32,000 bases of DNA from Acaryochloris thomasi RCC1774 (GCF_003231495.1 NZ_PQWO01000005.1:240001-272000); one strand, 5' to 3'. Positions 13,560 to 27,429 are shown, counted from the first letter of the stretch. The notes: generated from the letters alone by a model not told the origin. A program made the numbers and translations.

Positions 13560-15323
13560 CTATTGTATAAACGGCTGGAGATCAAAGCTGTATAACGCTC
13601 CGTGTTGACCAGACCAAGTCGCCGCAATTAGCTGAGATTGATGGGATGCGATCTCACTCACAACGTCTTGATTGCCCACAGGTAAATTCAGGTGTCTGAG
13701 CAAATCTCCTGACTCGTTAATTAAGGCAACGCCCCCCGTTTGATTTGCCAATAAATAGCCCCAAGGCGTCGCAACACCAAAGGTCGGAGACAGCGGTAGA
13801 GCAATCTGCTTGATCCGCAGCGGGTTGAGGGTGATCCAAAAACTGGCCTCAGCCGCTAGGGCCAAAACTTGATAGGGATGCGTCTGACTTTGAATTAGCT
13901 GGTGTATTGGTCGAGGCAGTCGGCAATAGTCAAACGTATTGCCTCGGCGGTTGAATAGCCGCAAGCACACCCCTTGAGCTTCAGGAATTGCCATGATGCC
14001 ACGGCGATCATCCAGCGTTAGCCAGTGAGTTGGCGATCCGGCCACGCTGCATCGGGGCTGCAGCGTTGGTAAGCGCAGAATCTGGCATTGGCCCCCTAGA
14101 CGACTGCTTTCAGTCGCGACCCCCAACCATTCTCCGCCCGATTCGACTGTCATCTTTAATGATTCAGACTGCCAAGTGCCTAAAGTGTGAACGGAGCTGT
14201 CTTGAGCTGCCTCATTTTCAGACGCTTTGGGTCGCCAGCAGAGTGCGTGAGCAGTGGCTCGCTGTGTTCTAATAAAAAGTCCCTGGGGGCTGCTCCACAT
14301 TTGCATAACCCGTCCCTGAGTTATGGGGTACTGTGTGGGTTCATCAAAGCCTGCGGGTGTAATGGATTGGCAAGTAACCTGTGAATCTAGGCCACAGTAG
14401 AGTTGATCCGCATCTGTTGCGAGGGCCAAAACAGTCGCAGCTAAAGCTGTTGTATGCAGGACCGGCAGTTCTGAAGGTGGTGAAATTGGAGTGGGGCGTT
14501 CTTCCGCCGCCGCTGCTAGGCGGAGAAGCTTCAGCATTGACTGGGCAGAGTCGAAGCGTTTCTGAGGTAGCTTTTGCGTCGCTTGTCGAATAATATCGCT
14601 TACAACCGTCGGGATGGTGTCAGGAATCTCGAGGAATTGATTGAGATGGGCCGTCATCAGATCGCCCGGCGTGCCGGAAAAGGGACGATGTCCGAGCACT
14701 AGCTCATAGAGCAGTACGCCCGCGGCATAAAAATCGGAGGCTGGAGAGTAGCTGCTGTAAAATCGCTCGGGAGCCATGTAGGCTGGGGAGCCGGTGTCGC
14801 CTCGTCGAGTTTCAGAGTCTGGTTCAGCCAGCAGTCGAGCGACGCCAAAGTCAGAGAGATGAGCCATCCAGCCAGTGGCCGTCAACGTCAGCAAGACATT
14901 CTCTGGTTTCAGGTCGCAATGGACAATTCCGCGTTGATGGGCATGGGCAAGACCCTCTACGACGTCAATCACAAGCTGAAGAGATTGTTTGAGATTTAGT
15001 TGCCCAGGCGTATCGATGAGCTGTCGCAGCGTTCCACCTTCACAGTAGTCCATGACCAGGTAGCGACCCGACTTACTGTATTCGAGAGTATGAAACGCAA
15101 CGATGTTTGGGTGCTGCAAGCTCGCCAGCAGGTTGAGTTCATGCAGGAATCGTGGTGTTGTTAACCGGCTATTATCTAGCTGCTTGAGCGCGACAATCTT
15201 TCCTGTCTGGCGGTGGATGCCGCAGAACACTCGACCAAATTGGCCTTGGCCGATGGGTCCTAAAACGCGATATTTTGGACCGGCAATATTTTTATCTATG
15301 GTGCCTAGCGGGCAAGTTTTCAT
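13560..15323 (-). CDS. spkG: Hanks-type Ser/Thr protein kinase with a C-terminal domain of about 300 aa and unknown function. It occupies the position of Synechocystis slr0152 (SpkG).
   Basis: The Gly loop is 'GQGQFGRV' and the Lys motif is 'VALKQL'. The catalytic loop is 'HCDLKPENVL', followed by 'SDFG' and 'SPAYMAPE'. The orthology call rests on synteny as the last gene of the pap-like operon, not on a search. Confidence 0.85.
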   Translation of the reverse strand: MKTCPLGTIDKNIAGPKYRVLGPIGQGQFGRVFCGIHRQTGKIVALKQLDNSRLTTPRFLHELNLLASLQHPNIVAFHTLEYSKSGRYLVMDYCEGGTLRQLIDTPGQLNLKQSLQLVIDVVEGLAHAHQRGIVHCDLKPENVLLTLTATGWMAHLSDFGVARLLAEPDSETRRGDTGSPAYMAPERFYSSYSPASDFYAAGVLLYELVLGHRPFSGTPGDLMTAHLNQFLEIPDTIPTVVSDIIRQATQKLPQKRFDSAQSMLKLLRLAAAAEERPTPISPPSELPVLHTTALAATVLALATDADQLYCGLDSQVTCQSITPAGFDEPTQYPITQGRVMQMWSSPQGLFIRTQRATAHALCWRPKASENEAAQDSSVHTLGTWQSESLKMTVESGGEWLGVATESSRLGGQCQILRLPTLQPRCSVAGSPTHWLTLDDRRGIMAIPEAQGVCLRLFNRRGNTFDYCRLPRPIHQLIQSQTHPYQVLALAAEASFWITLNPLRIKQIALPLSPTFGVATPWGYLLANQTGGVALINESGDLLRHLNLPVGNQDVVSEIASHQSQLIAATWSGQHGALYSFDLQPFIQ

Positions 15324-15371
15324 TATTCAGGTTTGAGTTGATTCGTTGCCCGCTAGAGCAAGGTCTGCGGC

Positions 15372-16313
15372 TTAATCGAACAAGCTACCAATCACGAGGG
15401 GCTCGTCGCTCTGACTTTCAGATGGCGCTTCGGGCTCCATCTCAACGGCGGCAGGCGCGAGTTCATGCTGCTCTTGGCTCAAGCTCATGGCTTCATCATA
15501 ATGCTCTAAATCACCTGCTTCAAAGTAAAGCTTAGCGGCGATGCGCAAATCGGCCACGGCGTGCTTCTTCTCGTCAATTGTGCCTCGCAGTGCACCCCGC
15601 TGAAAATAAGCGTCTGCATAGTCGGGATCTAGGGCAATGGCTTGGGAGTAATCGTCAATGGCAATGCGCTGGTCGTCTAGGCGACAAAGGCTTCCTCTGA
15701 CCAATCCCCTGCGATAGTAAAGGGTTGCATCTCTGGGCGTCGCGCGGATGATTTGGGTAAATAAATCAATTTGGTGGAGCTGCTCTAAAGCAGTGGCTAG
15801 GCTCTGTTCTTTCTCTCTGAGACTATCAGAGTCTGCCTGCAGTTCTTCCGTTTTCTTGACCAGTGCGACTTCGTGCTCTTCGAGGATCTCTAGCTTTTCG
15901 TTCATGGTCTCCAACGCGTTTTGTTGGGCCTGATTTTGCTTGGTGATGGCTTCGATGCTGAGCTGTTTGTCTTCGTCCTGCTGGGTAAGCGTTGCGATCG
16001 CATCTTTACGCTTTTGACCGTTTTGAGTCAGGGTTTCAATCTGAGCCTTCCGTTCTTGATCCTGCTGTGAGATCTGGGCAATCATCAGTTGACGCACCTG
16101 CCCCGCAGACTCAGTGAGACGGCGGCGGTTTGCCAAATGAAGCGTGGCCGTGAGCGACAGCGGAATGGACGCAAAGACGACTTGGTTGGTCACTGCCGAG
16201 GCAATGGCGCCACCCACAGAGCCCACCACTGAGATCATCTCGACATGGTTAAGCCAGTGGGACCGTTTGGCCTCTGCTTGAGCATTCAATAGGTGTTGCA
16301 TAATCTTGTTCAA
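15372..16313 (-). CDS. Membrane-anchored coiled-coil/TPR protein (slr0151-like position)
   Basis: 313 aa. A hydrophobic stretch spans aa 25-60 (ISVVGSVGGAIASAVTNQVVFASIPLSL). A Gln-rich coiled coil with units of about 14 aa spans aa 83-180. TPR-like repeats span aa 193-275 ('AIALDPDYADAYFQRG'). The tail is acidic. Confidence 0.85.
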   Translation of the reverse strand: MNKIMQHLLNAQAEAKRSHWLNHVEMISVVGSVGGAIASAVTNQVVFASIPLSLTATLHLANRRRLTESAGQVRQLMIAQISQQDQERKAQIETLTQNGQKRKDAIATLTQQDEDKQLSIEAITKQNQAQQNALETMNEKLEILEEHEVALVKKTEELQADSDSLREKEQSLATALEQLHQIDLFTQIIRATPRDATLYYRRGLVRGSLCRLDDQRIAIDDYSQAIALDPDYADAYFQRGALRGTIDEKKHAVADLRIAAKLYFEAGDLEHYDEAMSLSQEQHELAPAAVEMEPEAPSESQSDEPLVIGSLFD

Positions 16314-16337
16314 TCCCTTGAAAAGTTGATAAAGGTT

Positions 16338-16805
16338 TTAGCTCAACAGCGCTTGGCTGAGCTGGAGGGCTGGCGTCATTTGCTTAGCTTCTTCTGGTGT
16401 GAGCTGTTGCTCCATGACCTTGGGCGTCACTTGGCTCACGATTTGTGAGGTCTGCTGGTCTTGGAAAGCGTTGATGAGGGTGCGTTGCCAGAGCAGCATG
16501 CTGTCCCGCAGGCGGTCGAGGTCGCTAACCAGCATGGCGGCGGCAGAGCTTTTGAGCAGATGTTTGCGATCGCGACGGCAGGTTTCGACCATGTCCCGAG
16601 TGCCCTTATGGAAAACGCGGGCATTCTTTTCCAAAGCCTTCTCCTCGATCTGATCCATGATCTGCTCTTCAGCATCCCGAATCTTTTCGTAGGCGCTGAT
16701 GCGATGATCGGCAGACTCTAGATAGTCCTTGATAAACTGGAGTTCTGTAGCGGTGGCAAAGCGTCCATCTGCATCCAGACTGACCCGTGCAAGTTGTGTC
16801 AACAT
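16338..16805 (-). CDS. Phycobiliprotein-fold (PF00502-like) protein, not a canonical phycobilisome subunit (slr0149-like position)
   Basis: 155 aa. 'DADGRFATATELQFIKDYLESADHRISAYEKI' aligns by eye with allophycocyanin alpha '[32 protein letters not shown]'. 'ETCRRD' aligns with the chromophore-Cys motif 'TCLRD'. Confidence 0.8.
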   Translation of the reverse strand: MLTQLARVSLDADGRFATATELQFIKDYLESADHRISAYEKIRDAEEQIMDQIEEKALEKNARVFHKGTRDMVETCRRDRKHLLKSSAAAMLVSDLDRLRDSMLLWQRTLINAFQDQQTSQIVSQVTPKVMEQQLTPEEAKQMTPALQLSQALLS

Positions 16806-16834
16806 AATTCAAGATCCCCTTACGAATGTGGTGC

Positions 16835-17317
16835 CTATACGGCTTGTGACTGATTAAGATACTGCGAGACTTCAGAGCGCGTATCTTCAAGCTGGCTAAT
16901 CATTGACCGCGTGATCAATTTGCCTTCCTCTACTAAGACCTGACCATTGAGCGGATGGAGAATATTTTGTTCAGCCCGTCGGCCAATCAAATCTTCGACA
17001 TCAGCCATATCGCTGAGGTACATCCCCGACGGTAGCTCGATGACCACGCCTTCGCCCAGAACGCGTGTTTGGCAGGCGAGACGTGACATGCGATTGCAGG
17101 TGGTGATCACCTCTAAAGATCGCTGCTCACGACGGTTCATGGGCGACAAGCTCTCCATGCCGTCTTTGATGTAGACGTGACAGGTGGCGCACATGCCACG
17201 GCCCCCGCATTCATGCAGCACCTTGAGATCGTGCTGCAATAACCCCGACAACAAATTATCGTTCGTTGCGATTGCGGTCTCCTGATTGATAGGGTCCAGC
17301 TTGACAAGCTTCGCCAC
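16835..17317 (-). CDS. 2Fe-2S ferredoxin with a C-terminal extension of about 60 aa (slr0148/Fed5-like position)
   Basis: 160 aa. The Cys ligand pattern is C37-x5-C43-x2-C46...C82 ('ECGGRGMCATCHV' ... 'LACQ'), which is adrenodoxin-like spacing. The extension covers aa 100-160. Confidence 0.88.
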   Translation of the reverse strand: MAKLVKLDPINQETAIATNDNLLSGLLQHDLKVLHECGGRGMCATCHVYIKDGMESLSPMNRREQRSLEVITTCNRMSRLACQTRVLGEGVVIELPSGMYLSDMADVEDLIGRRAEQNILHPLNGQVLVEEGKLITRSMISQLEDTRSEVSQYLNQSQAV

Positions 17318-17386
17318 CTTAGATGCTCCTTTTACATGAGTAGTGAGTGAAAGAGGCCCTTGATGGGCCTTTAGACGGGTTTAACC

Positions 17387-18802
17387 CTACGCCCCTAGAT
17401 TTTCTAGCTCATCAAGACCGGCAAGACGCTCGAGATCTGCGAGTTCAGCTAGATTGCCCAGTGCTTCCAGAGAATCTGGAGAGAGATCGGACTCCTGTGA
17501 CTCGTCCTGTGGCTCTGCCACCATTTCTGGCATAGAGACATCAGATGCCTCTTCAGTCATGCTGCCCAGCTGTTCTAATTCAACGGGCGCGGCTGTGTCT
17601 GTGATTTCTCCAGACATCTCCTGTGGCTCTTCCGTCATCTCCGGTGCAGAGATATCAGTGGCCTCTTCTGTGATGGCGTCAGGCTGTTCTGCCTCGGCAG
17701 GCGCGGCTGTGTCCGCGATTTCCTCAGATATGTCTGTGGAAAAGTCTAGACTGTCGAGATCGGGTAGGTCTGCCAGCATTTCTGATGCTTCTACCGAATC
17801 TAGTGTGGGTGGCTCTTCTGTGGCCGCCTCCGGCTCAGCTGGTGCAGGCATCTCAGCCATCTCTATGGCTGTCTCCGGCTCTGGCATGAAGCTTTCTGCA
17901 GCGGCAATGACTGGTTCTTCGATGGCGGCGATCTCAGCGGGTGCTTCTGCCTCAGCCATAGATGAGGGGACCATATCTGCTTCTGCCATCTCGACCGAGT
18001 CCTCTGGCTCCGGCATTAGGCTCTCTGCTGCGGCATCAGGCATCTCGGCGGGTGTCTCGATGCTCTCCATCGATGCCTCAGGCATCAGGCTCTCGGGTGA
18101 TGGCTCGGATGCGGGCTCAGAAATCTCAGCTTGATCGAGTCCTAGGCGCATCATGATCGTGTCATGGTCCTGCTGCTCTTCAATGCCGGTTTCCGCTACT
18201 TTCAGTCGTTCTTCTAGACCTAAGATAAAGGTATTCTCAGGTGCACCCATCGATTCACAGGTGGTTTGCACGCAGTGCAGTTCCTGGCCGGTGAGCTGAC
18301 TAAAAAACGTGCTGAGTAGGCCCGCTTCTGCATGACAGGTGGGACGTTCTGCGGGACTCTCGTCGCTCTGCTGAACTGCAGCAAAGGCAGAATTTTCCAC
18401 TGTTGCGATAATGAAGCCTTGGGCATAGTGTTTGAACTCTAGGTTCAAATTGCCCCAGCCATAGGTTTTCCAGCACTGCTTGAGGCACTGGAGAAACTCC
18501 ACCATCTCCATTTCAGCCAAGGGCTTGTCATAGTAGGTGCTGATCTCTTCAGCGAAGCGGCGATAAAAATATTTGCCCCACCAATGTCCGCACTGGAACA
18601 TGACGAGTCCTGCAGATGGACCCACTTCCTCTCTTAGGCTGCTGTAGAGCGCCTGCAGTAGAGTGTCGGGAAGGGCAATGAGCCGGTTGCCCTGGCGATT
18701 TTCGAGCAGACCTAGCTCAAAGTCTCCCTGTACGTAGGCATCGGGGGCAAAATAATTGCCGGGTAAACGGTCTTTGTTAAGTAATTCAGCAACTGCAATC
18801 AT
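17387..18802 (-). CDS. V4R (4-vinyl-reductase-type) domain protein with a repetitive acidic tail of about 250 aa (slr0147-like position)
   Basis: 471 aa. The first 205 aa or so carry the V4R hallmark 'TCHAEAGLLSTFFSQLTGQELHCVQTTCESMGAPENTF'. Residues 222-471 are Glu/Asp/Pro/Ala/Met-rich with internal repeats. Confidence 0.88.
   Translation of the reverse strand: MIAVAELLNKDRLPGNYFAPDAYVQGDFELGLLENRQGNRLIALPDTLLQALYSSLREEVGPSAGLVMFQCGHWWGKYFYRRFAEEISTYYDKPLAEMEMVEFLQCLKQCWKTYGWGNLNLEFKHYAQGFIIATVENSAFAAVQQSDESPAERPTCHAEAGLLSTFFSQLTGQELHCVQTTCESMGAPENTFILGLEERLKVAETGIEEQQDHDTIMMRLGLDQAEISEPASEPSPESLMPEASMESIETPAEMPDAAAESLMPEPEDSVEMAEADMVPSSMAEAEAPAEIAAIEEPVIAAAESFMPEPETAIEMAEMPAPAEPEAATEEPPTLDSVEASEMLADLPDLDSLDFSTDISEEIADTAAPAEAEQPDAITEEATDISAPEMTEEPQEMSGEITDTAAPVELEQLGSMTEEASDVSMPEMVAEPQDESQESDLSPDSLEALGNLAELADLERLAGLDELENLGA
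17501..17728 (-). repeat. Tandem 114-bp (38-aa) coding repeat, two copies, inside the acidic tail
   Basis: SEEIADTAAPAEAEQPDAITEEATDISAPEMTEEPQEM is followed by SGEITDTAAPVELEQLGSMTEEASDVSMPEMVAEPQDE. At DNA level, GGCGCGGCTGT starts at both 17586 and 17700, a spacing of 114 bp. Confidence 0.85.
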
Positions 18803-18829
18803 GATGGTGTTTTGTTCTCCGGTATGGGA

Positions 18830-19309
18830 TTAGCCTGCGGTCACGAGGTCGTTACCCACCAGGATCTGCTGGGTTTGAGTTAGATAAGGCTGGATTAAAG
18901 TCCACTGATGGGCAGACAGGACTTCTTTGAGGCGAGCTTCAAGGAGTTGGCTGAGCTGATATTCGAGATCTACAAGCTGATGGGCCTGTACGACATCGGT
19001 GAGCCATTCCAGGAGTCGGTGTCGCAGGAATTCTGGGTTGTTGCTCAGCATCGCCATCGCGCTGTAGCGAAGGGCTGAGATCCAGTGCTGTAGAGCTTTT
19101 TCTTGACGCTGAGCATTTTCGCTAGGGCAGGTGGCCTCAAGCTGATCGGCAATCGGTTGCCAGATCTGTTGTTCTTTGTCTCGCAGCAGTTCATAGGTCT
19201 GCAGCCGCTGCTCTAGAGCGCTGACGTGCTGTTTAAAGTCAGTGATCTCAGCGTTTGTGAGGTAATGGTCTTCTGCGTCCTGCAGAAATTGTTGGAAGTC
19301 AGAGTGCAT
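18830..19309 (-). CDS. Second phycobiliprotein-fold protein, lacking the canonical chromophore Cys (slr0146-like position)
   Basis: 159 aa. 'AEDHYLTNAEITDFKQHVSALEQRLQTYELL' matches the N-terminal helix pattern of phycobiliproteins. The position equivalent to C-x-R-D reads 'KALQHW'. Confidence 0.75.
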   Translation of the reverse strand: MHSDFQQFLQDAEDHYLTNAEITDFKQHVSALEQRLQTYELLRDKEQQIWQPIADQLEATCPSENAQRQEKALQHWISALRYSAMAMLSNNPEFLRHRLLEWLTDVVQAHQLVDLEYQLSQLLEARLKEVLSAHQWTLIQPYLTQTQQILVGNDLVTAG

Positions 19310-19317
19310 AATGGCCC

Positions 19318-19743
19318 CTAAAATAAATCAGAGAAGTCAGAGAGATTTAAGTCACTGCTGTCAACGGGTGGGTCGACGGCGTTGAGTTTGGGGACTGCCG
19401 CAATTTCAGGCTGGGCTTCCCAAACAAATAGGTTGAAAAATTTGTTGACGGGTAGGGTCGCGTTCAAGGCGATGGAACTGATGACACTGGAACTGATAAC
19501 AGTCTGGGTTGGGTTGGTTGGGTTGGCTGCTTTGGGTGCCTTGACGGGCTGCAGTTTGCCATTCCAGTTGCTGTGACTCAGAAAGTCTTGGACGGTTTGA
19601 CTCTGCCAAGATTGAGGTGCGTGCTGTCGGGGTGTGTGCTGTCGGGGTGTGTTTCGGGCTGGGGCTTTGGGTAATGTTTTGCCCTGCCAGTTGCACTGCC
19701 GGAGGAACTCTTGAACGGTGGAAAATTGCCAGTCACGGCTCAT
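19318..19743 (-). CDS. Small protein with a repeated W..TVQ(E/D)FL...NW.GK motif (slr0145-like position)
   Basis: 141 aa. 'WQFSTVQEFLRQCNWQGK' and 'WQSQTVQDFLSHSNWNGK' are separated by a Pro/Arg/Gln linker that contains the tandem PRQHTPRQHA. The C-terminus is acidic ('DLNLSDFSDLF'). The start overlaps the upstream stop in an ATGA arrangement (19740-19743). Confidence 0.7.
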   Translation of the reverse strand: MSRDWQFSTVQEFLRQCNWQGKTLPKAPARNTPRQHTPRQHAPQSWQSQTVQDFLSHSNWNGKLQPVKAPKAANPTNPTQTVISSSVISSIALNATLPVNKFFNLFVWEAQPEIAAVPKLNAVDPPVDSSDLNLSDFSDLF

Positions 19744-20453
19744 GACAGGTATTCTCCGTTGTGCAGACGCTTTTCAATGTCGCGCATGCTGGCACCTTCG
19801 TTTTGCCAAAAAGTAGCGGCGTCGATGCGATCGCGTTTGCCTAAAAGAAACTTGCAGTAAGTTTCGCCCATGGCGTAGCACTGTAGCTCGATACAGCTCA
19901 TGTCTTTTTGGACTAAGTTGCTAAAGAACCCTGCAAACAAACCGGCATAGATATGGCAGACGGGCTTACCCACATCTCCCAAGGTGCGGGCCACGGCAGA
20001 GTCAAAAATATTGATGAACATGAATCCATTTTTCTGGTCGCTGAGATCCACATCCCAGTTGCCCCAGCCTTGGCTTGTAAACGGCCACCACCAGGCTTCT
20101 AGAGCAAAGGATGGATTGCACTGCCGCAAACCCATGCCATAGTCTTTTTCAAACCAGCTCTGGAAGAAGGCGGCATCACGCTCTCCCCAAGCTTTACCAA
20201 TGTTGTACATGATAACGCTGGAGGCACTCCCAACTTCTTGCTCTAGCCCTTCAATTAAAGCTAGAATAAAGTCCTCGCTCGCTAAAATATTGCGAGACTC
20301 GTGCCAGTCATTAATTGTCCCCTGCTCTGGCTGGAAGGTGAAGAAGTCTGAAAAGCTGTAGTGATTCCGCTTGGATGGATATCTTTGCTTGTGTGATACC
20401 GGCTGGTCGAGACTCACCCCAAGAGGGGCTACTTCAGTGGGTGTAAAAACCAT
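19740..20453 (-). CDS. V4R (4-vinyl-reductase-type) domain protein, first gene of the operon (slr0144-like position)
   Basis: 237 aa. 'VCHIYAGLFAGFFSNLVQKDMSCIELQCYAMGETYCKFLL' is the typical V4R C-terminal Cys/Gly pattern. Confidence 0.88.
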   Translation of the reverse strand: MVFTPTEVAPLGVSLDQPVSHKQRYPSKRNHYSFSDFFTFQPEQGTINDWHESRNILASEDFILALIEGLEQEVGSASSVIMYNIGKAWGERDAAFFQSWFEKDYGMGLRQCNPSFALEAWWWPFTSQGWGNWDVDLSDQKNGFMFINIFDSAVARTLGDVGKPVCHIYAGLFAGFFSNLVQKDMSCIELQCYAMGETYCKFLLGKRDRIDAATFWQNEGASMRDIEKRLHNGEYLS

Positions 20454-20473
20454 CTGTCACTGATCCTATTGTC

Positions 20474-20498
20474 CTAAGTAAACTGATGCTTTACTTAG
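20474..20498 (-). promoter_or_regulatory. Perfect 9-bp dyad/hairpin in the leader of the V4R operon
   Basis: Arms CTAAGTAAA (20474-20482) and TTTACTTAG (20490-20498) flank a 7-nt loop. The element ends 20 nt upstream of the start codon at 20453 and just upstream of an AGGA. Confidence 0.4.
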
Positions 20499-20531
20499 CA
20501 TTCCCACTTCAAAGGCAATCTCTTAGCTTTG

Positions 20532-20549
20532 TCGCAAAGGAATTTGCGA
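20532..20549. promoter_or_regulatory. Perfect palindrome TCGCAAA-GGAA-TTTGCGA in the operon's upstream region
   Basis: The arms are 7 bp with a 4-bp spacer. TTATAC-N8-TTATAC direct repeats lie about 30 bp away, at 20581-20600. The binding factor is unknown. Confidence 0.3.
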
Positions 20550-20761
20550 ATTTATAAGAATACTCAATGTATATTGTGTTTTATACGCTGTACGTTATAC
20601 ACAGAATCCCCTGTCCGCTTGGGTTCCGTTTGTTCTTGCGATCGCAGGTGGACAAAACAAAATCTGATTAACTGTGAGCTTCATCCTTCTTAGATTCTCG
20701 TTTTAATGGCGCAGGTGCCGTTCCGCTGAGGCGTCTTGAAGCCCCTGGGATGCTCTCCCTG

Positions 20762-21664
20762 TTATTGCTGCTGAGCCAGAATCAGCTTCAGTATGATCTG
20801 CAGATCGGCCAGCCGTTCAAGCGTAGTGTCAGACCAGTTCGGGTCCGGCTGAGGGGAATGTAGGTAAAGGGTTCCCCAGAGCTGCTGTTCTGCCAGAATT
20901 GGCACCACCACCAGCGCTCTTGTTTGTAGCGCTTGGAGATTATCCCAGAGTGCTGGGGGTGCAGGATCCTTCGTCAGGCTCAATTGATCAAGGGCTAATA
21001 TCTCTCCCTGCTGCAGCCTGTGCTGCCAATCTGGCTGCAAGGCTAAATCAAAGTTGGATGGATTTTCGAGGGACGGAAGTGCTGCTGATTCAACCCATCG
21101 TGAAGTCTGCTGCTGCCAAAGATGAATACGATGGGTCAACGTGACGGACTGCAGAGCATTGACTAATTGCTGAAGCTGTTCCCACAACTCTTGGTCATGA
21201 TTATGGAGACTTTGGCTCAGGCACTGGGTCCAGCCCTCTAGTTTGCTGCACGTGGCCTCGGCGGTGATCAGAGCTTGGTGGGTCGCCAACAGCCTCCGGA
21301 CTCGCTCTGAAAGAACGGGCCAATTAATCGGCTTGGTAATGTAGTCGGTGGCCCCGACAGCAAAGGCCTGATCGACGGAGGCTTGATCATCCAGCACCGT
21401 GAGAATCAGCAGCGGAACGCGATCGCCCCCTGGTAGCTGACGGAGACGCTGACAGCAGTTGAAGCCATCCATTCCTGGCATGACGGCATCCATTAGCACT
21501 AAATTAGGCTGACTGATCCGATATTCTGCCAGCCCCTGCTCGCCATCTTTGGCTTCCACCACTTGATAGCCTTCTGTTGACATGGCGAGATTCAAGAGTC
21601 CACGGGTAGAGCGATCGTCGTCAATAATCAGAACGACGGGAGAGGCTGGGGCTGGCGCGGTCAT
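20762..21664 (-). CDS. Response regulator, REC plus C-terminal GAF-like domain
   Basis: 300 aa. REC motifs are 'VVLIIDDD', 'LVLMDAVMPGMDG' and 'ATDYITKPI'. The C-terminal 150 aa or so have a GAF-like pattern ('ALVVVPILAEQQLWGTLYLHS...WSDTTLERLADL'). Confidence 0.88.
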   Translation of the reverse strand: MTAPAPASPVVLIIDDDRSTRGLLNLAMSTEGYQVVEAKDGEQGLAEYRISQPNLVLMDAVMPGMDGFNCCQRLRQLPGGDRVPLLILTVLDDQASVDQAFAVGATDYITKPINWPVLSERVRRLLATHQALITAEATCSKLEGWTQCLSQSLHNHDQELWEQLQQLVNALQSVTLTHRIHLWQQQTSRWVESAALPSLENPSNFDLALQPDWQHRLQQGEILALDQLSLTKDPAPPALWDNLQALQTRALVVVPILAEQQLWGTLYLHSPQPDPNWSDTTLERLADLQIILKLILAQQQ

Positions 21665-21675
21665 GCTTCGTTTCC

Positions 21676-25131
<3,456 letters not shown>

Positions 25132-25146
25132 TGAGTGATCGGATCT

Positions 25147-27429
25147 CTATGAACATGGGCTAGCGGGCCGCAGGGTCGAGACGGGCTGCAGGACTGTGGA
25201 CTGTAGCTGGGATTTCAGCTCGGAAGGGAGTCTGCATTCTCCGCTCAGACAGTCTACTAGTCGCTGATTCGCTTGATAGTACTGTTGAAGCTGTCCTTGT
25301 CCCTTGGGCGGCCAGTTGAGGTGACGATGCTCAGTGAGCCAGGCCTGGAAGCTTTCAACCCATTGGAGCCCATCGGTCTGCCACCAGTTCTGGAGATTTA
25401 TTTCACCCATGGCGGGGTCAGGAAGTTTTTCTTTGAGGGCTTGCCAGCTTTGGCGCAGTGGTGTTTCAAAGGTAAACCGCTGTTCTAGGTCCAACGCGAA
25501 GCTGAAGTTGAGAATTTCTTTGAGACTAGATCCTTTCACTAATGGCAAGCTGAGGTTGAAGGCCCGCACGAAGGCCAGGTCTAGGGCCAAGGCGTCAGGC
25601 AGGTCATTGGCAAGGGTTGGATCAAGTGCGATCGCAAGGTTCAGATCCCGATCAAACAGCAGACTGAAGTAGAATGCCCTCACTGCCGCTGGCTTGCAGT
25701 CGAGCTCTAGCCCACTTACCTTGCGATCGAGTCCAGCGAGAAACTTTTGCAAGGATTCTGTGTGGGCCAAGCCTTGAATTTGAGCCTGGATTTGCTGTAC
25801 CAGATCGGTCGCATCCGGCAGCATGCTGCTGGTGAGCAGCAGTACCTCACGCCACTGAGCATCACAGACATGGGTCGCTAAGTGCGCCAACGCTTGCTGG
25901 CGAGATGCTGGAGGCGTCGCTACAATTTTGCGAGCGGCGAGATATTCCTGAAAGGTCAAATGCGAGAATGAATAGACATCTCGGGCTCGCTCAACCAGCA
26001 AGCCGTGCTGCAGAACAATGGAGCCCAGTACAGCCTCACTAGCTTGCCAAAGCACCTCTGGATCTGAGCTAACGTCGGCAAAACTGGATAGATACCCGGC
26101 AATAATCCGTAGGACATCCTGTTTCTCAAAATAGAAATGGCCCTGCTCAAAGGTCGTTGCGGCAATCTGCCCCATTAGCGTGATTTTTTGCGCCCGCGAG
26201 AGCTGTTGATAGGTCGTGTCTCGATGGATGCCTCGGGCCTGATCCCAGCGACCCAGCAGAATATCTAAAGCCGCTTTGTAAAGCTTTGCGCGATTGCTGG
26301 GAAAGGAAGACCGCTCCTGAAAAACAGAACAGACCAAGCTGAGCAACAGTGGACTGACCACTAATTCTCGAATCGGCTGATTCTCATGCTGCTGGAGCTG
26401 CTCGAAAAACTGGGTGGCTTTAGAGAGTCCTGCTGTCTTTGAATTCTGGGCCGTCGCGACGAAATAGCGACGGGCAAAGGCTTCAATTTGGGCCTGATTG
26501 AAGTCTGCTAGCTCAACGTAGGTGAACCCACGAAAGTAATAGGATTGGGCGGCAATCCGGCAGGTGACAATGATCTGGCATTGATAGTACTGATCGGCAA
26601 AGTCTTGAATTTGGTGAATGAGACTTTGGCTGTTCTCTTGAGCCACCTCATCAAGGCCATCCAGCAGAATCAGTACACGGCCCTGCTGTAGCAACCGTTC
26701 GAGTTGCTCATCTGCAAGGCCGCTGCCGTTCCAGACCCGGCTGATGTAATCGACAATGCTGAAATCATCTTGGGCGGTGCGCGTCAGCATCCGCAGCGGG
26801 ATAAAAATGGGAATGCATTCCGGTCGTAGACGGTTGCCTTGGCACTCAAGGGCAATGTGCTGTAAAAAAGTAGTCTTACCGGCTCCAGGTTTACCCACAA
26901 TCACTAGCTTTGAGTGGGCCTTAATGGTTTCTGCACCCTGCGTTAAATCGTCATGGACCGGCATAAATCGGGTGGATTCCGTTGCGGTCTGTAGCTCAGA
27001 AATCTCTAGCCAGCGCTGGTGGGTCAGTTGGGGCAACGTTTGAATGCCGGTATAGATCTCACTGAGCTGCAGCGTATGAGTTACGTCTAGCGAAGACTGC
27101 AGGATGCCACACTGGGCCTGTAGTTGACCTTGCTGATAAGTTCGCAGTCTTTGAACCCATTCGTCTAACTCTTGCGCCGTGGAGGTTGCTCTGAGGTCGT
27201 CGGGGCTAGGAAGGCCTGCAATCTCCTGCCATTCCAGGTCCAGCTGAAAGCAAAGATCAATAAAAATATGTCGCTCAATGGGTTTCCCGGTGAAAAATTT
27301 CCAAATGGGTTGCCGGGTCTGGACGCTTACCTGGGCAGCTAAATACTCCTGAGTCCACCCAAGGCGTTGAAAGGCCTGTTTGGCTTTGATGGCACCGACA
27401 GGTGTGGCAAAAAGCGATCGTTTTGCCAT
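25147..27429 (-). CDS. STAND NTPase: N-terminal XRE-like HTH, NACHT domain and C-terminal helical region, with no WD40/TPR repeats
   Basis: 760 aa. The HTH is 'GWTQEYLAAQVSVQTRQPIWKFFTGKPIERHIFIDLCFQLDLEWQEI'. Walker A is 'GKPGAGKTT' (26869-26895) and Walker B is 'VLILLDGLDEV'. The C-terminal 'LQQYYQANQRLVDCLSGEC' resembles the helical module that I recall preceding repeat arrays in other cyanobacterial NACHT proteins. Confidence 0.88.
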   Translation of the reverse strand: MAKRSLFATPVGAIKAKQAFQRLGWTQEYLAAQVSVQTRQPIWKFFTGKPIERHIFIDLCFQLDLEWQEIAGLPSPDDLRATSTAQELDEWVQRLRTYQQGQLQAQCGILQSSLDVTHTLQLSEIYTGIQTLPQLTHQRWLEISELQTATESTRFMPVHDDLTQGAETIKAHSKLVIVGKPGAGKTTFLQHIALECQGNRLRPECIPIFIPLRMLTRTAQDDFSIVDYISRVWNGSGLADEQLERLLQQGRVLILLDGLDEVAQENSQSLIHQIQDFADQYYQCQIIVTCRIAAQSYYFRGFTYVELADFNQAQIEAFARRYFVATAQNSKTAGLSKATQFFEQLQQHENQPIRELVVSPLLLSLVCSVFQERSSFPSNRAKLYKAALDILLGRWDQARGIHRDTTYQQLSRAQKITLMGQIAATTFEQGHFYFEKQDVLRIIAGYLSSFADVSSDPEVLWQASEAVLGSIVLQHGLLVERARDVYSFSHLTFQEYLAARKIVATPPASRQQALAHLATHVCDAQWREVLLLTSSMLPDATDLVQQIQAQIQGLAHTESLQKFLAGLDRKVSGLELDCKPAAVRAFYFSLLFDRDLNLAIALDPTLANDLPDALALDLAFVRAFNLSLPLVKGSSLKEILNFSFALDLEQRFTFETPLRQSWQALKEKLPDPAMGEINLQNWWQTDGLQWVESFQAWLTEHRHLNWPPKGQGQLQQYYQANQRLVDCLSGECRLPSELKSQLQSTVLQPVSTLRPASPCS

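Follow-up and report, generated by a model that had tools for sequence, protein, structure and literature searches.

The genes slr0144-slr0152 of Synechocystis sp. PCC 6803 were reportedly described as the pap operon by Wegener et al. in 2008. Among their products, Slr0144-Slr0149 interact physically at the thylakoid, where they co-fractionate and co-purify (PMC9880817), Slr0151 is an intrinsic membrane TPR protein that acts in photosystem II (PSII) assembly and repair (PMC4853703), and the kinase SpkG (Slr0152) is required for the phosphorylation of ferredoxin 5 (Fed5; PMC11863333). In the Synechocystis literature, Slr0151 further contacts D1 and CP43, with a role in D1-CP43 association, and loss of the operon lowers PSII activity. 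On the evolutionary side, Rockwell, Martin & Lagarias (2023) traced the core of the cluster, which consists of an iron-sulfur (Fe-S) protein, the two V4R proteins V4R-A and V4R-B and a globin, back to pre-PcyA bilin-biosynthesis clusters (PMC10151467). Here, we analysed a 32-kb stretch of DNA from Acaryochloris thomasi RCC1774 (the whole stretch is referred to as the window) and, within it, a set of eight genes at 20453..13560. This region is very likely orthologous to slr0144-slr0152, the pap (photosystem II assembly protein) cluster of cyanobacteria, in the form that carries an SpkG-type kinase and lacks the second ferredoxin, Fed4.

All eight open reading frames (ORFs) lie on the minus strand, to which the coordinates of genes and their parts given below refer, and they follow the order V4R, small repeat protein, globin, V4R, ferredoxin, globin, TPR, kinase. 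The first of them, g1 (19740..20453), encodes a clade-A V4R protein of 237 amino acids (aa), the equivalent of Slr0144 (Pfam PF02830, 1.6e-22). It is followed by g2 (19318..19743; 141 aa), whose small, disordered repeat product has no Pfam match and is equated with Slr0145 through its position and its match in the reference locus introduced below, by g3 (18830..19309; 159 aa), a phycobiliprotein-like globin without the bilin-binding Cys (Slr0146 equivalent; Phycobilisome, PF00502, 9.4e-11), and by g4 (17387..18802; 471 aa), the clade-B V4R protein (Slr0147 equivalent; PF02830, 1.3e-13), which consists of a core V4R domain in residues 1-221 (18140..18802) and an acidic tail of 250 residues that is disordered by its composition (17390..18139). 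With a GTG start, g5 (16835..17317; 160 aa) encodes an adrenodoxin/ISC-type [2Fe-2S] ferredoxin (Fed5/Slr0148 equivalent; Fer2, PF00111, 2.9e-10), and g6 (16338..16805; 155 aa) a second phycobiliprotein-like globin, or cyanobacterial bilin biosynthesis-associated globin (BBAG; Slr0149 equivalent; PF00502, 1.5e-15). The TTG-initiated g7 (15372..16313; 313 aa) specifies a membrane-anchored coiled-coil/TPR protein (Slr0151 equivalent; TPR_11, 1.9e-10) and g8 (13560..15323; 587 aa) the kinase (SpkG/Slr0152 equivalent; Pkinase, 2.5e-52), with its kinase domain in residues 1-285 (14469..15323) and a C-terminal domain of ~300 aa recognised by similarity to the reference (13563..14468). An NCBIfam scan placed none of the eight products in a named equivalog. 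At the g1/g2 junction, TCATGAGC, stop and start codons overlap in ATGA, and the later intergenic gaps measure, in order, 8, 27, 69, 29, 24 and 48 nucleotides (nt); spacing within the cluster is thus at most 69 nt, as compared to 308 nt upstream of g1, and no terminator-like site was found in the internal gaps. Genes, overlap and gaps all lie where an original prediction, made from the window's sequence, had put them, and the Pfam scan returned the V4R (PF02830), PF00502 and 2Fe-2S assignments which that prediction had foreseen.

To place the cluster in a wider context, one genome per species was scanned with an alignment of V4R-B homologues, the best 80 of 443 matching places were kept as loci (L001-L080), and the window proteins were placed on these loci by tblastn. 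As a reference served L081, a nine-gene locus with the full slr0144-slr0152-type layout, whose Fed4 is identical to that of Synechocystis sp. LKSZ1 and whose products measure, in order, 241, 125, 168, 221, 160, 167, 103, 313 and 627 aa. In BLASTP comparisons, all eight window products matched their positional equivalents in L081 reciprocally and one-to-one, at identities of 61% for g1 (to the 241-aa V4R protein), 30% for g2 (125 aa), 47% for g3 (168 aa), 57% for g4, 73% for g5 (to the 160-aa Fer2 protein), 47% for g6 (167 aa), 33-35% for g7 (to the 313-aa TPR protein) and 37% for g8. The paralogues were told apart in this comparison: the two V4R proteins are 61% and 57% identical to their own equivalents versus 24-29% to the other paralogue, and the two globins 47% each versus 24-27%. 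Moreover, the eight-gene order of the window, from V4R-A at one end to the kinase at the other, recurs in most of the 80 loci, spanning Thermosynechococcus, Acaryochloris, Pleurocapsales, Chroococcales, Chroococcidiopsidales and others. Since the same genes are found in the same order in dozens of independent genomes, the arrangement exceeds what chance would produce. Both the reciprocal matches and the wide synteny hence bear out the predicted equivalence to slr0144-slr0152.

Compared with the operon of PCC 6803, the window has the same gene families in the same order and with the same tight, one-strand spacing, and its TPR protein shares the N-terminal hydrophobic anchor, the coiled coil, the two TPRs and the C-terminal LF. 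Its closest relatives are a protein from a metagenome-assembled genome (MAG; 94% identity) and L001 (87%). Also among the recovered loci is that of Acaryochloris marina MBIC11017 (L008), a strain in which Partensky et al. (2018) had equated the clusters around 'apcA' genes with slr0144-0152 (PMC6002478). These 'apcA'-linked clusters stem from a related lineage and illustrate that the cluster can exist in more than one copy per genome; L008 differs from the window in having no kinase within reach, a tail-less V4R-B and an identity of only 35-76%.

Two side observations were made on the recovered loci. In an Oscillatoriales-type arrangement (Microcoleus, Tychonema, Kamptonema; L040, L049, L056, L057, L059, L064, L068, L070-L074, L076, L077, L079 and L080), the ferredoxin gene and that of the second globin are inverted with respect to the other cluster genes, no TPR gene was detected and a long kinase follows directly. 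Besides, a complete cyanobacterial-type cluster including a Fed4-type ferredoxin and a kinase was found on a contig labelled 'Candidatus Gracilibacteria bacterium SU_1_2' (L016), which is probably mis-binned cyanobacterial DNA.

The original prediction had singled out two features as lineage-specific, namely the absence of an slr0150 counterpart and the acidic tail of V4R-B; only the second of these stood. Between g6 and g7 there is a gap of just 24 nt and no ferredoxin-like sequence, and nine cluster-linked plant-type Fed4 ferredoxins used as tblastn queries found no match in the 32-kb window. Yet the missing slr0150 ferredoxin is not lineage-specific but the majority state: a plant-type ferredoxin of ~105 aa occupies the interval between g6 and the TPR gene in 9 of 45 comparable loci and is absent from the remaining 36, so that the window, while differing from PCC 6803 in this respect, is like most cyanobacteria with the cluster. 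The arrangement had moreover been catalogued before. Cassier-Chauvat & Chauvat (2014) distinguished the cluster types e, e', e'' and e*, and the window is an exact match for e'', which has the kinase but no fed4 (PMC4284462), while Partensky et al. (2018) listed for A. thomasi RCC1774 itself homologues of slr0144-0148 and slr0151-0152 around an slr0149-like gene, with no slr0150 (PMC6002478). Being the state of 36 of 45 loci and of the published e'' type, the absence of Fed4 does not exclude membership in the pap cluster. The window is accordingly a further example of a catalogued variant of a known, named system, and not a new kind of system.

The acidic tail of V4R-B, on the other hand, is real, rare and clade-restricted, and the sole one of the two claimed differences that truly is so. 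Its 250 residues include 73 Asp/Glu versus one Lys/Arg (E 21%, A 17%, P 11%, S 10%). Across 81 loci (the 80 plus L081), tailed V4R-B proteins occur, besides the 471-aa protein of the window, only in L001 (827 aa), L003 (441 aa) and L005 (432 aa), whereas V4R-B measures ~220 aa in almost every other locus, the LKSZ1-type reference included. When the full 471-aa protein served as query, the search was dominated by the low-complexity tail and yielded 15 metagenome or MAG proteins with an extension (275-501 aa in length), all of which belong to close relatives, namely Thermosynechococcaceae MAGs and, at 94%, 'Cyanobacteria bacterium P01_A01_bin.17'. When repeated with the core alone, the search returned 608 homologues, of which the best 120 are nearly all 218-234 aa long and 59-87% identical. 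The motif ...SL(E/D)AL.(N/S)LAEL(P/A)DLE... recurs, often in duplicate, in tails of otherwise divergent sequence. DNA tandem repeats in the tail form short and weak arrays only, and the tail is therefore not a recent perfect tandem expansion. Two Thermosynechococcaceae MAGs harbour two clusters each, on different contigs (L002/L003 and L004/L005), with a tail-less V4R-B of 227-231 aa in L002 and L004 versus a tailed one of 432-441 aa in L003 and L005. The window groups with the tailed copies, g1 being 86-92% identical to these as opposed to 80-82% to the tail-less copy. L002 shows no kinase gene in the remainder of the locus downstream of its TPR gene. Antisense to the tail, there is a plus-strand ORF (17454-18134; 226 aa, rich in Ser, Ala and Gly), which most likely just reflects the low-complexity sequence and is not a gene.

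The V4R-A protein is highly conserved in 69 orthologues. Over the V4R core, it aligns directly with the phenol-sensor domains of PoxR and MopR, and its tetrad C166-x22-E189-x2-C192-x7-C200 (19854..19958) coincides, residue for residue and in its spacing, with their Cys/Glu/Cys/Cys, a site that we take to bind zinc in those two proteins. All four residues are invariant in the 69 orthologues. In V4R-B, the corresponding positions are C156, Q179, C182 and N190, likewise all invariant; as V4R-A keeps the tetrad whereas V4R-B has Cys/Gln/Cys/Asn without exception, the V4R pair is asymmetric. An AlphaFold model of the V4R-B core, built from a 25-sequence alignment (mean predicted confidence, pLDDT, 75; first 42 residues unconfident), has as its nearest Foldseek neighbours the sensor domains of MopR, PoxR and DmpR (PDB 5KBE, 5FRU and 6IY8; E ~1e-8), followed by the MJ1460 V4R protein, Bet3/TRAPPC3 and H-NOX domains. 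Going by this model, the fold neighbours of V4R-B are all proteins whose fold encloses a pocket that can take a hydrophobic ligand. A V4R-B profile found no match among PDB sequences. We also considered, and rejected, assignment of the V4R proteins to the MopR/PoxR/DmpR-type sensor family. Those sensors share their fold with the V4R-B model and all bind small hydrophobic ligands, but the window V4R proteins stand alone, without AAA+ or DNA-binding output domains, identity is only 16-19%, and the tetrad is confined to V4R-A, with Gln and Asn at two of the four positions in V4R-B. The likeness is thus one of fold.

The ferredoxin encoded by g5 has the ligand spacing C37-x5-C43-x2-C46-x35-C82 of the adrenodoxin/ISC type and carries a conserved C-terminal extension of ~60 aa. 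Among PDB entries, it matches E. coli Fdx and putidaredoxin best, and Fed5 has been called adrenodoxin-like (PMC4284462). As for the globins, the CRRD motif of g6 (C76-R-R-D79; 16569..16580), a putative site of bilin attachment, aligns with the chromophore-binding 'CLRD' of the allophycocyanin alpha subunit ApcA. Among 63 g6 orthologues, this CxRD motif retains its Cys in 41, its Arg in 41 and its Asp in all 63, the Cys position being taken by Trp in 16 and by Tyr in 4. In the g3 family, the bilin-Cys position holds Ala, Ser or Val in 71 of 75 orthologues, and g3 itself reads ALQH. Classification of the two globins as ApcA/ApcB antenna subunits was rejected, the best scores being 32 bits versus 270 for ApcA and 24 versus 228 for ApcB.

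The original prediction had stated that no ligand was assigned to the V4R or phycobiliprotein-like members of the cluster. For the globins, this is outdated: CxRD is the bilin site of phycobiliproteins and also found in BBAGs, and BBAG-1 and BBAG-3 carry the motif and bind bilins, the demonstration of bilin binding extending to BBAG-1, -2 and -3 only and not to cyanobacterial members (PMC10151467). With a globin fold next to an Fe-S protein and a V4R pair, and with CxRD present, g6 has the features of a cyanobacterial BBAG and may be able to attach a bilin via Cys76 of CRRD, to judge from the alignment. The likeness of the window to the pre-PcyA bilin clusters lies in the shared core, made up of an Fe-S protein, two V4R proteins (one from clade A, the other from clade B) and one or more globins (PMC10151467). 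It differs from them in that no heme oxygenase or ferredoxin-dependent bilin reductase is present in the window, be it in the cluster or elsewhere, that there are two globins, one of them without the Cys, and that TPR and kinase genes have been added.

The catalytic motifs of the kinase are intact (GQGQFGRV, VALK, HCDLKPEN, DFG, APE). In g8, Cys136 (14919-14921) replaces the Arg of HRD, and the L081 kinase likewise reads IHCDIKPEN. The HCD in place of HRD makes g8 a non-RD kinase. SpkG-type kinases appear from their sequences to be non-RD kinases, which may have a bearing on the unverified in-vitro activity of SpkG (cf. PMC11863333). While the kinase domain is 57% identical to that of L081, the C-terminal domain is so at only 25-27%. 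The latter found no match among Pfam or PDB sequences; its weak, sub-threshold matches were beta-propellers, and a single-sequence model came out all-beta, albeit of poor quality (pLDDT 41). We therefore suspect a beta-propeller fold. Among the loci, a long kinase form, typically ~590-690 aa (in one case 516 aa) and equipped with the C-terminal domain, can be distinguished from a short form of 267-307 aa that comprises the kinase domain alone. Short kinases were found in 16 loci (L007, L010, L014, L019, L021, L022, L029, L030, L032, L033, L037, L038, L047, L050, L052 and L069).

A further feature is shared by the small repeat protein and the TPR protein. The g2 product has two copies of V.(E/D)F(F/L)....NW.G, and its family, with 140 representatives among 1.84 billion proteins, is confined to the pap cluster. 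Family members are built from one to five copies of a 12-residue V.(E/D)FF....NW.G with proline-rich linkers in between. At its extreme C-terminus, g2 ends in DLF (19321..19329). This end is conserved as LF in 127 and as [LMI]F in 135 of the 140 representatives, and the corresponding figures for the locus orthologues, the window's included, are 58 and 62 of 65. In g7, a hydrophobic segment at about residues 24-58 precedes HLANRRR, and the protein terminates in ...GSLFD (SLFD, 15375..15386). The cloning primers for PCC 6803 slr0151 decode to HLFNRKQ at residue 62 and to ...TAANLFG at the C-terminus (PMC4853703), and the HL.NR junction motif and the LF end of the window protein match these stretches of Slr0151. 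Across the TPR family, LF, IF or FL occurs within the last eight residues of 48 of 50 orthologues. The LF ends of g2 and g7 are, judging from this conservation, probably docking peptides for a common site, and it seems that the near-invariant LF peptide shared by the Slr0145 and Slr0151 families has so far gone unreported. As candidate sole receptors of the g2 end, the TPR domain and the C-terminal domain of the kinase were rejected: the LF of g2 is retained where the TPR gene is absent, and likewise where the kinase or its C-terminal domain is missing, so that neither can be the only receptor.

On these grounds, we propose a working model in which V4R-A and V4R-B would form a hydrophobic-ligand-binding module of the PoxR/MopR sensor fold, with a structural zinc site in V4R-A and a degenerate one in V4R-B. 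Together with the two globins, of which g6 might attach a bilin through Cys76 and g3 would not, this pair could hold a tetrapyrrole, be it linear or cyclic, or sense one. The role of redox partner would fall to g5, the adrenodoxin-type 2Fe-2S ferredoxin, with an activity set by phosphorylation from the non-RD kinase, and the TPR protein would tether the complex to PSII assembly or repair intermediates in the membrane, the LF ends of g2 and the TPR protein probably docking on their common site. In the window and its tailed relatives, V4R-B would contribute a disordered arm of strong negative charge in which Leu/acidic motifs are repeated and which would most likely act as an additional module for interaction or solubility. 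In its outline, a pigment- or redox-handling complex under phospho-control, the scheme had already been drawn up in the original prediction, and it agrees with the literature.

Several points weigh against this model. No member of the cyanobacterial globin or V4R families has a demonstrated ligand, and with the bilin Cys missing in about a third of the g6 orthologues, covalent bilin binding is not essential to that family. We infer the heterodimerisation of V4R-A and V4R-B as well as the roles given to the LF ends and the tail, and co-transcription of the window genes is deduced from their spacing and synteny. In Synechocystis, the mapped transcription unit TU2264 spans slr0144-slr0151 (PMC4195498), so that the operon is transcribed together at least as far as slr0151, and the kinase may have its own promoter. 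The reciprocal comparison, too, was made with an LKSZ1-type Synechocystis and with anchors from the literature, not with the PCC 6803 proteins, that strain being absent from the 80 loci kept and from the 120 homologues listed for Fed4, among which LKSZ1 did appear. Finally, Rockwell et al. pointed out that the PSII phenotypes may stem from slr0150-0152, genes often absent beside the core, rather than from the core itself, and the same may be true of the photosystem I phenotypes (PMC10151467).

The last point leads to an alternative that we consider rather unlikely, namely that the six-gene core is a relic bilin-handling or bilin-sensing module without a direct role in PSII, which merely sits beside TPR and kinase genes with a PSII function and which stores, buffers or senses phycocyanobilin or biliverdin. 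Beyond the origin of the phenotypes, the descent of the core from pre-PcyA clusters and the CxRD kept in g6 speak for it, as does the patchy distribution of the additional genes, the TPR gene being missing in Oscillatoriales-type loci and the kinase in Acaryochloris and other loci. However, the order of core and TPR gene is conserved in most loci, with the kinase following in many, the reported kinase substrate is the ferredoxin of the core (PMC11863333), and Slr0144-Slr0149 have been detected both in PSII preparations and at the thylakoid (PMC9880817, PMC4853703). The same LF end on core g2 and on the TPR protein likewise suggests one shared assembly. A chlorophyll-precursor module, in which the V4R proteins would, in the manner of BchJ, act on the 8-vinyl group as enzymes or carriers in the making of chlorophyll, is highly improbable. 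The V4R domain takes its name from BchJ, there are statements in the literature that V4R may interact with chlorophyll precursors, and g1 gave a weak NCBIfam match to TIGR02019 BchJ, the bacteriochlorophyll 4-vinyl reductase (4.7e-05). Yet this match reached 23 bits against a cutoff of 74 and covered only the 60-residue V4R core, the nearest structures are ligand sensors or carriers and not reductases, Pfam revealed no nucleotide- or flavin-binding domain, and the ancestry of the cluster ties it to bilins, not to chlorophyll (PMC10151467). We retain the pap-type complex as the preferred reading of the locus.

The tail could be non-functional, i.e. a neutral low-complexity expansion or an artefact of read-through after loss of a stop codon. 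Its length among close relatives ranges from ~50 to ~600 residues (proteins of 275-827 aa), its sequence is of low complexity, every other V4R-B manages without it, and in two MAGs a tail-less paralogous cluster exists alongside the tailed one. A non-functional tail would nonetheless have to account for a reading frame that runs without a stop over 250-600 codons in no fewer than four independent genomes as well as in several metagenomes, for an acidic character maintained throughout with basic residues almost absent, and for the conservation and frequent duplication of the ...SLEAL.NLAELPDLE... motif in proteins that are only 51-73% identical overall, and we think it unlikely. Going further, the fast-evolving proteins of the operon might be linked through short linear motifs: the LF ends would dock on one conserved receptor, and the acidic arm of V4R-B, multivalent and gained in this clade, would re-tether the complex. 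The LF receptor could in this case belong to the core complex or to an intermediate of photosystem assembly, and the target of the arm would be, for instance, a basic surface, examples being phycobilisome linkers and the stromal face of PSII. We put this forward as a distinctly speculative idea; if true, docking by linear motifs would offer a new testable handle on the pap system.

Outside the coding sequence, the AT-rich 308-nt spacer upstream of g1 (20454-20761) contains a 57-nt leader that directly abuts the g1 start (20454..20510, minus strand) and hardly varies among the window, L001, L003 and L005. Outside the leader, the spacer shows no conservation when the window and L001, as one pair, are compared with L003 and L005, as the other. 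The leader is absent from more distant loci, and the tail-less L002 and L004 share only its last ~15 nt. It had no match in Rfam and could be a promoter-proximal or 5'-untranslated control element. Rfam and tRNA scans found nothing, and consensus promoter and terminator scans returned nothing above chance. Downstream of the cluster lies a convergent gamma-glutamyltranspeptidase gene, with 20 nt between its end and the stop codon of the kinase.

Upstream, a same-strand trio (20762-27429, minus strand) encodes a REC-GAF response regulator of 300 aa, an FHA hybrid histidine kinase and a NACHT NTPase. The hybrid kinase, of 1151 aa, has the architecture FHA-GAF-HisKA-HATPase-REC-Hpt, with the FHA domain at its N-terminus. 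FHA domains bind phosphothreonine, and cross-talk with the Ser/Thr kinase of the operon is hence conceivable. The trio is kept beside the cluster only in the closest relative, L001, and we therefore rejected the hybrid kinase as a conserved partner. An unrelated FHA-GGDEF-EAL gene adjoins the cluster in L081 and in no other locus.

In summary, what the A. thomasi locus adds is the clade-restricted tail and some comparative details only, the fed4-less variant having been catalogued and the bilin link published in 2023. By itself, the window makes the mechanism of the pap system no more testable than Synechocystis already does. On the other hand, the pap cluster is widespread in cyanobacteria and tied both to the assembly and repair of PSII and to the evolutionary origin of bilin metabolism, and the tailed and tail-less paralogous clusters within the same genomes represent a natural experiment. 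Together with the tail, the LF peptide, the contrast between the tetrads of V4R-A and V4R-B and the long and short kinases provide specialists with concrete targets for mutagenesis or pull-down experiments.

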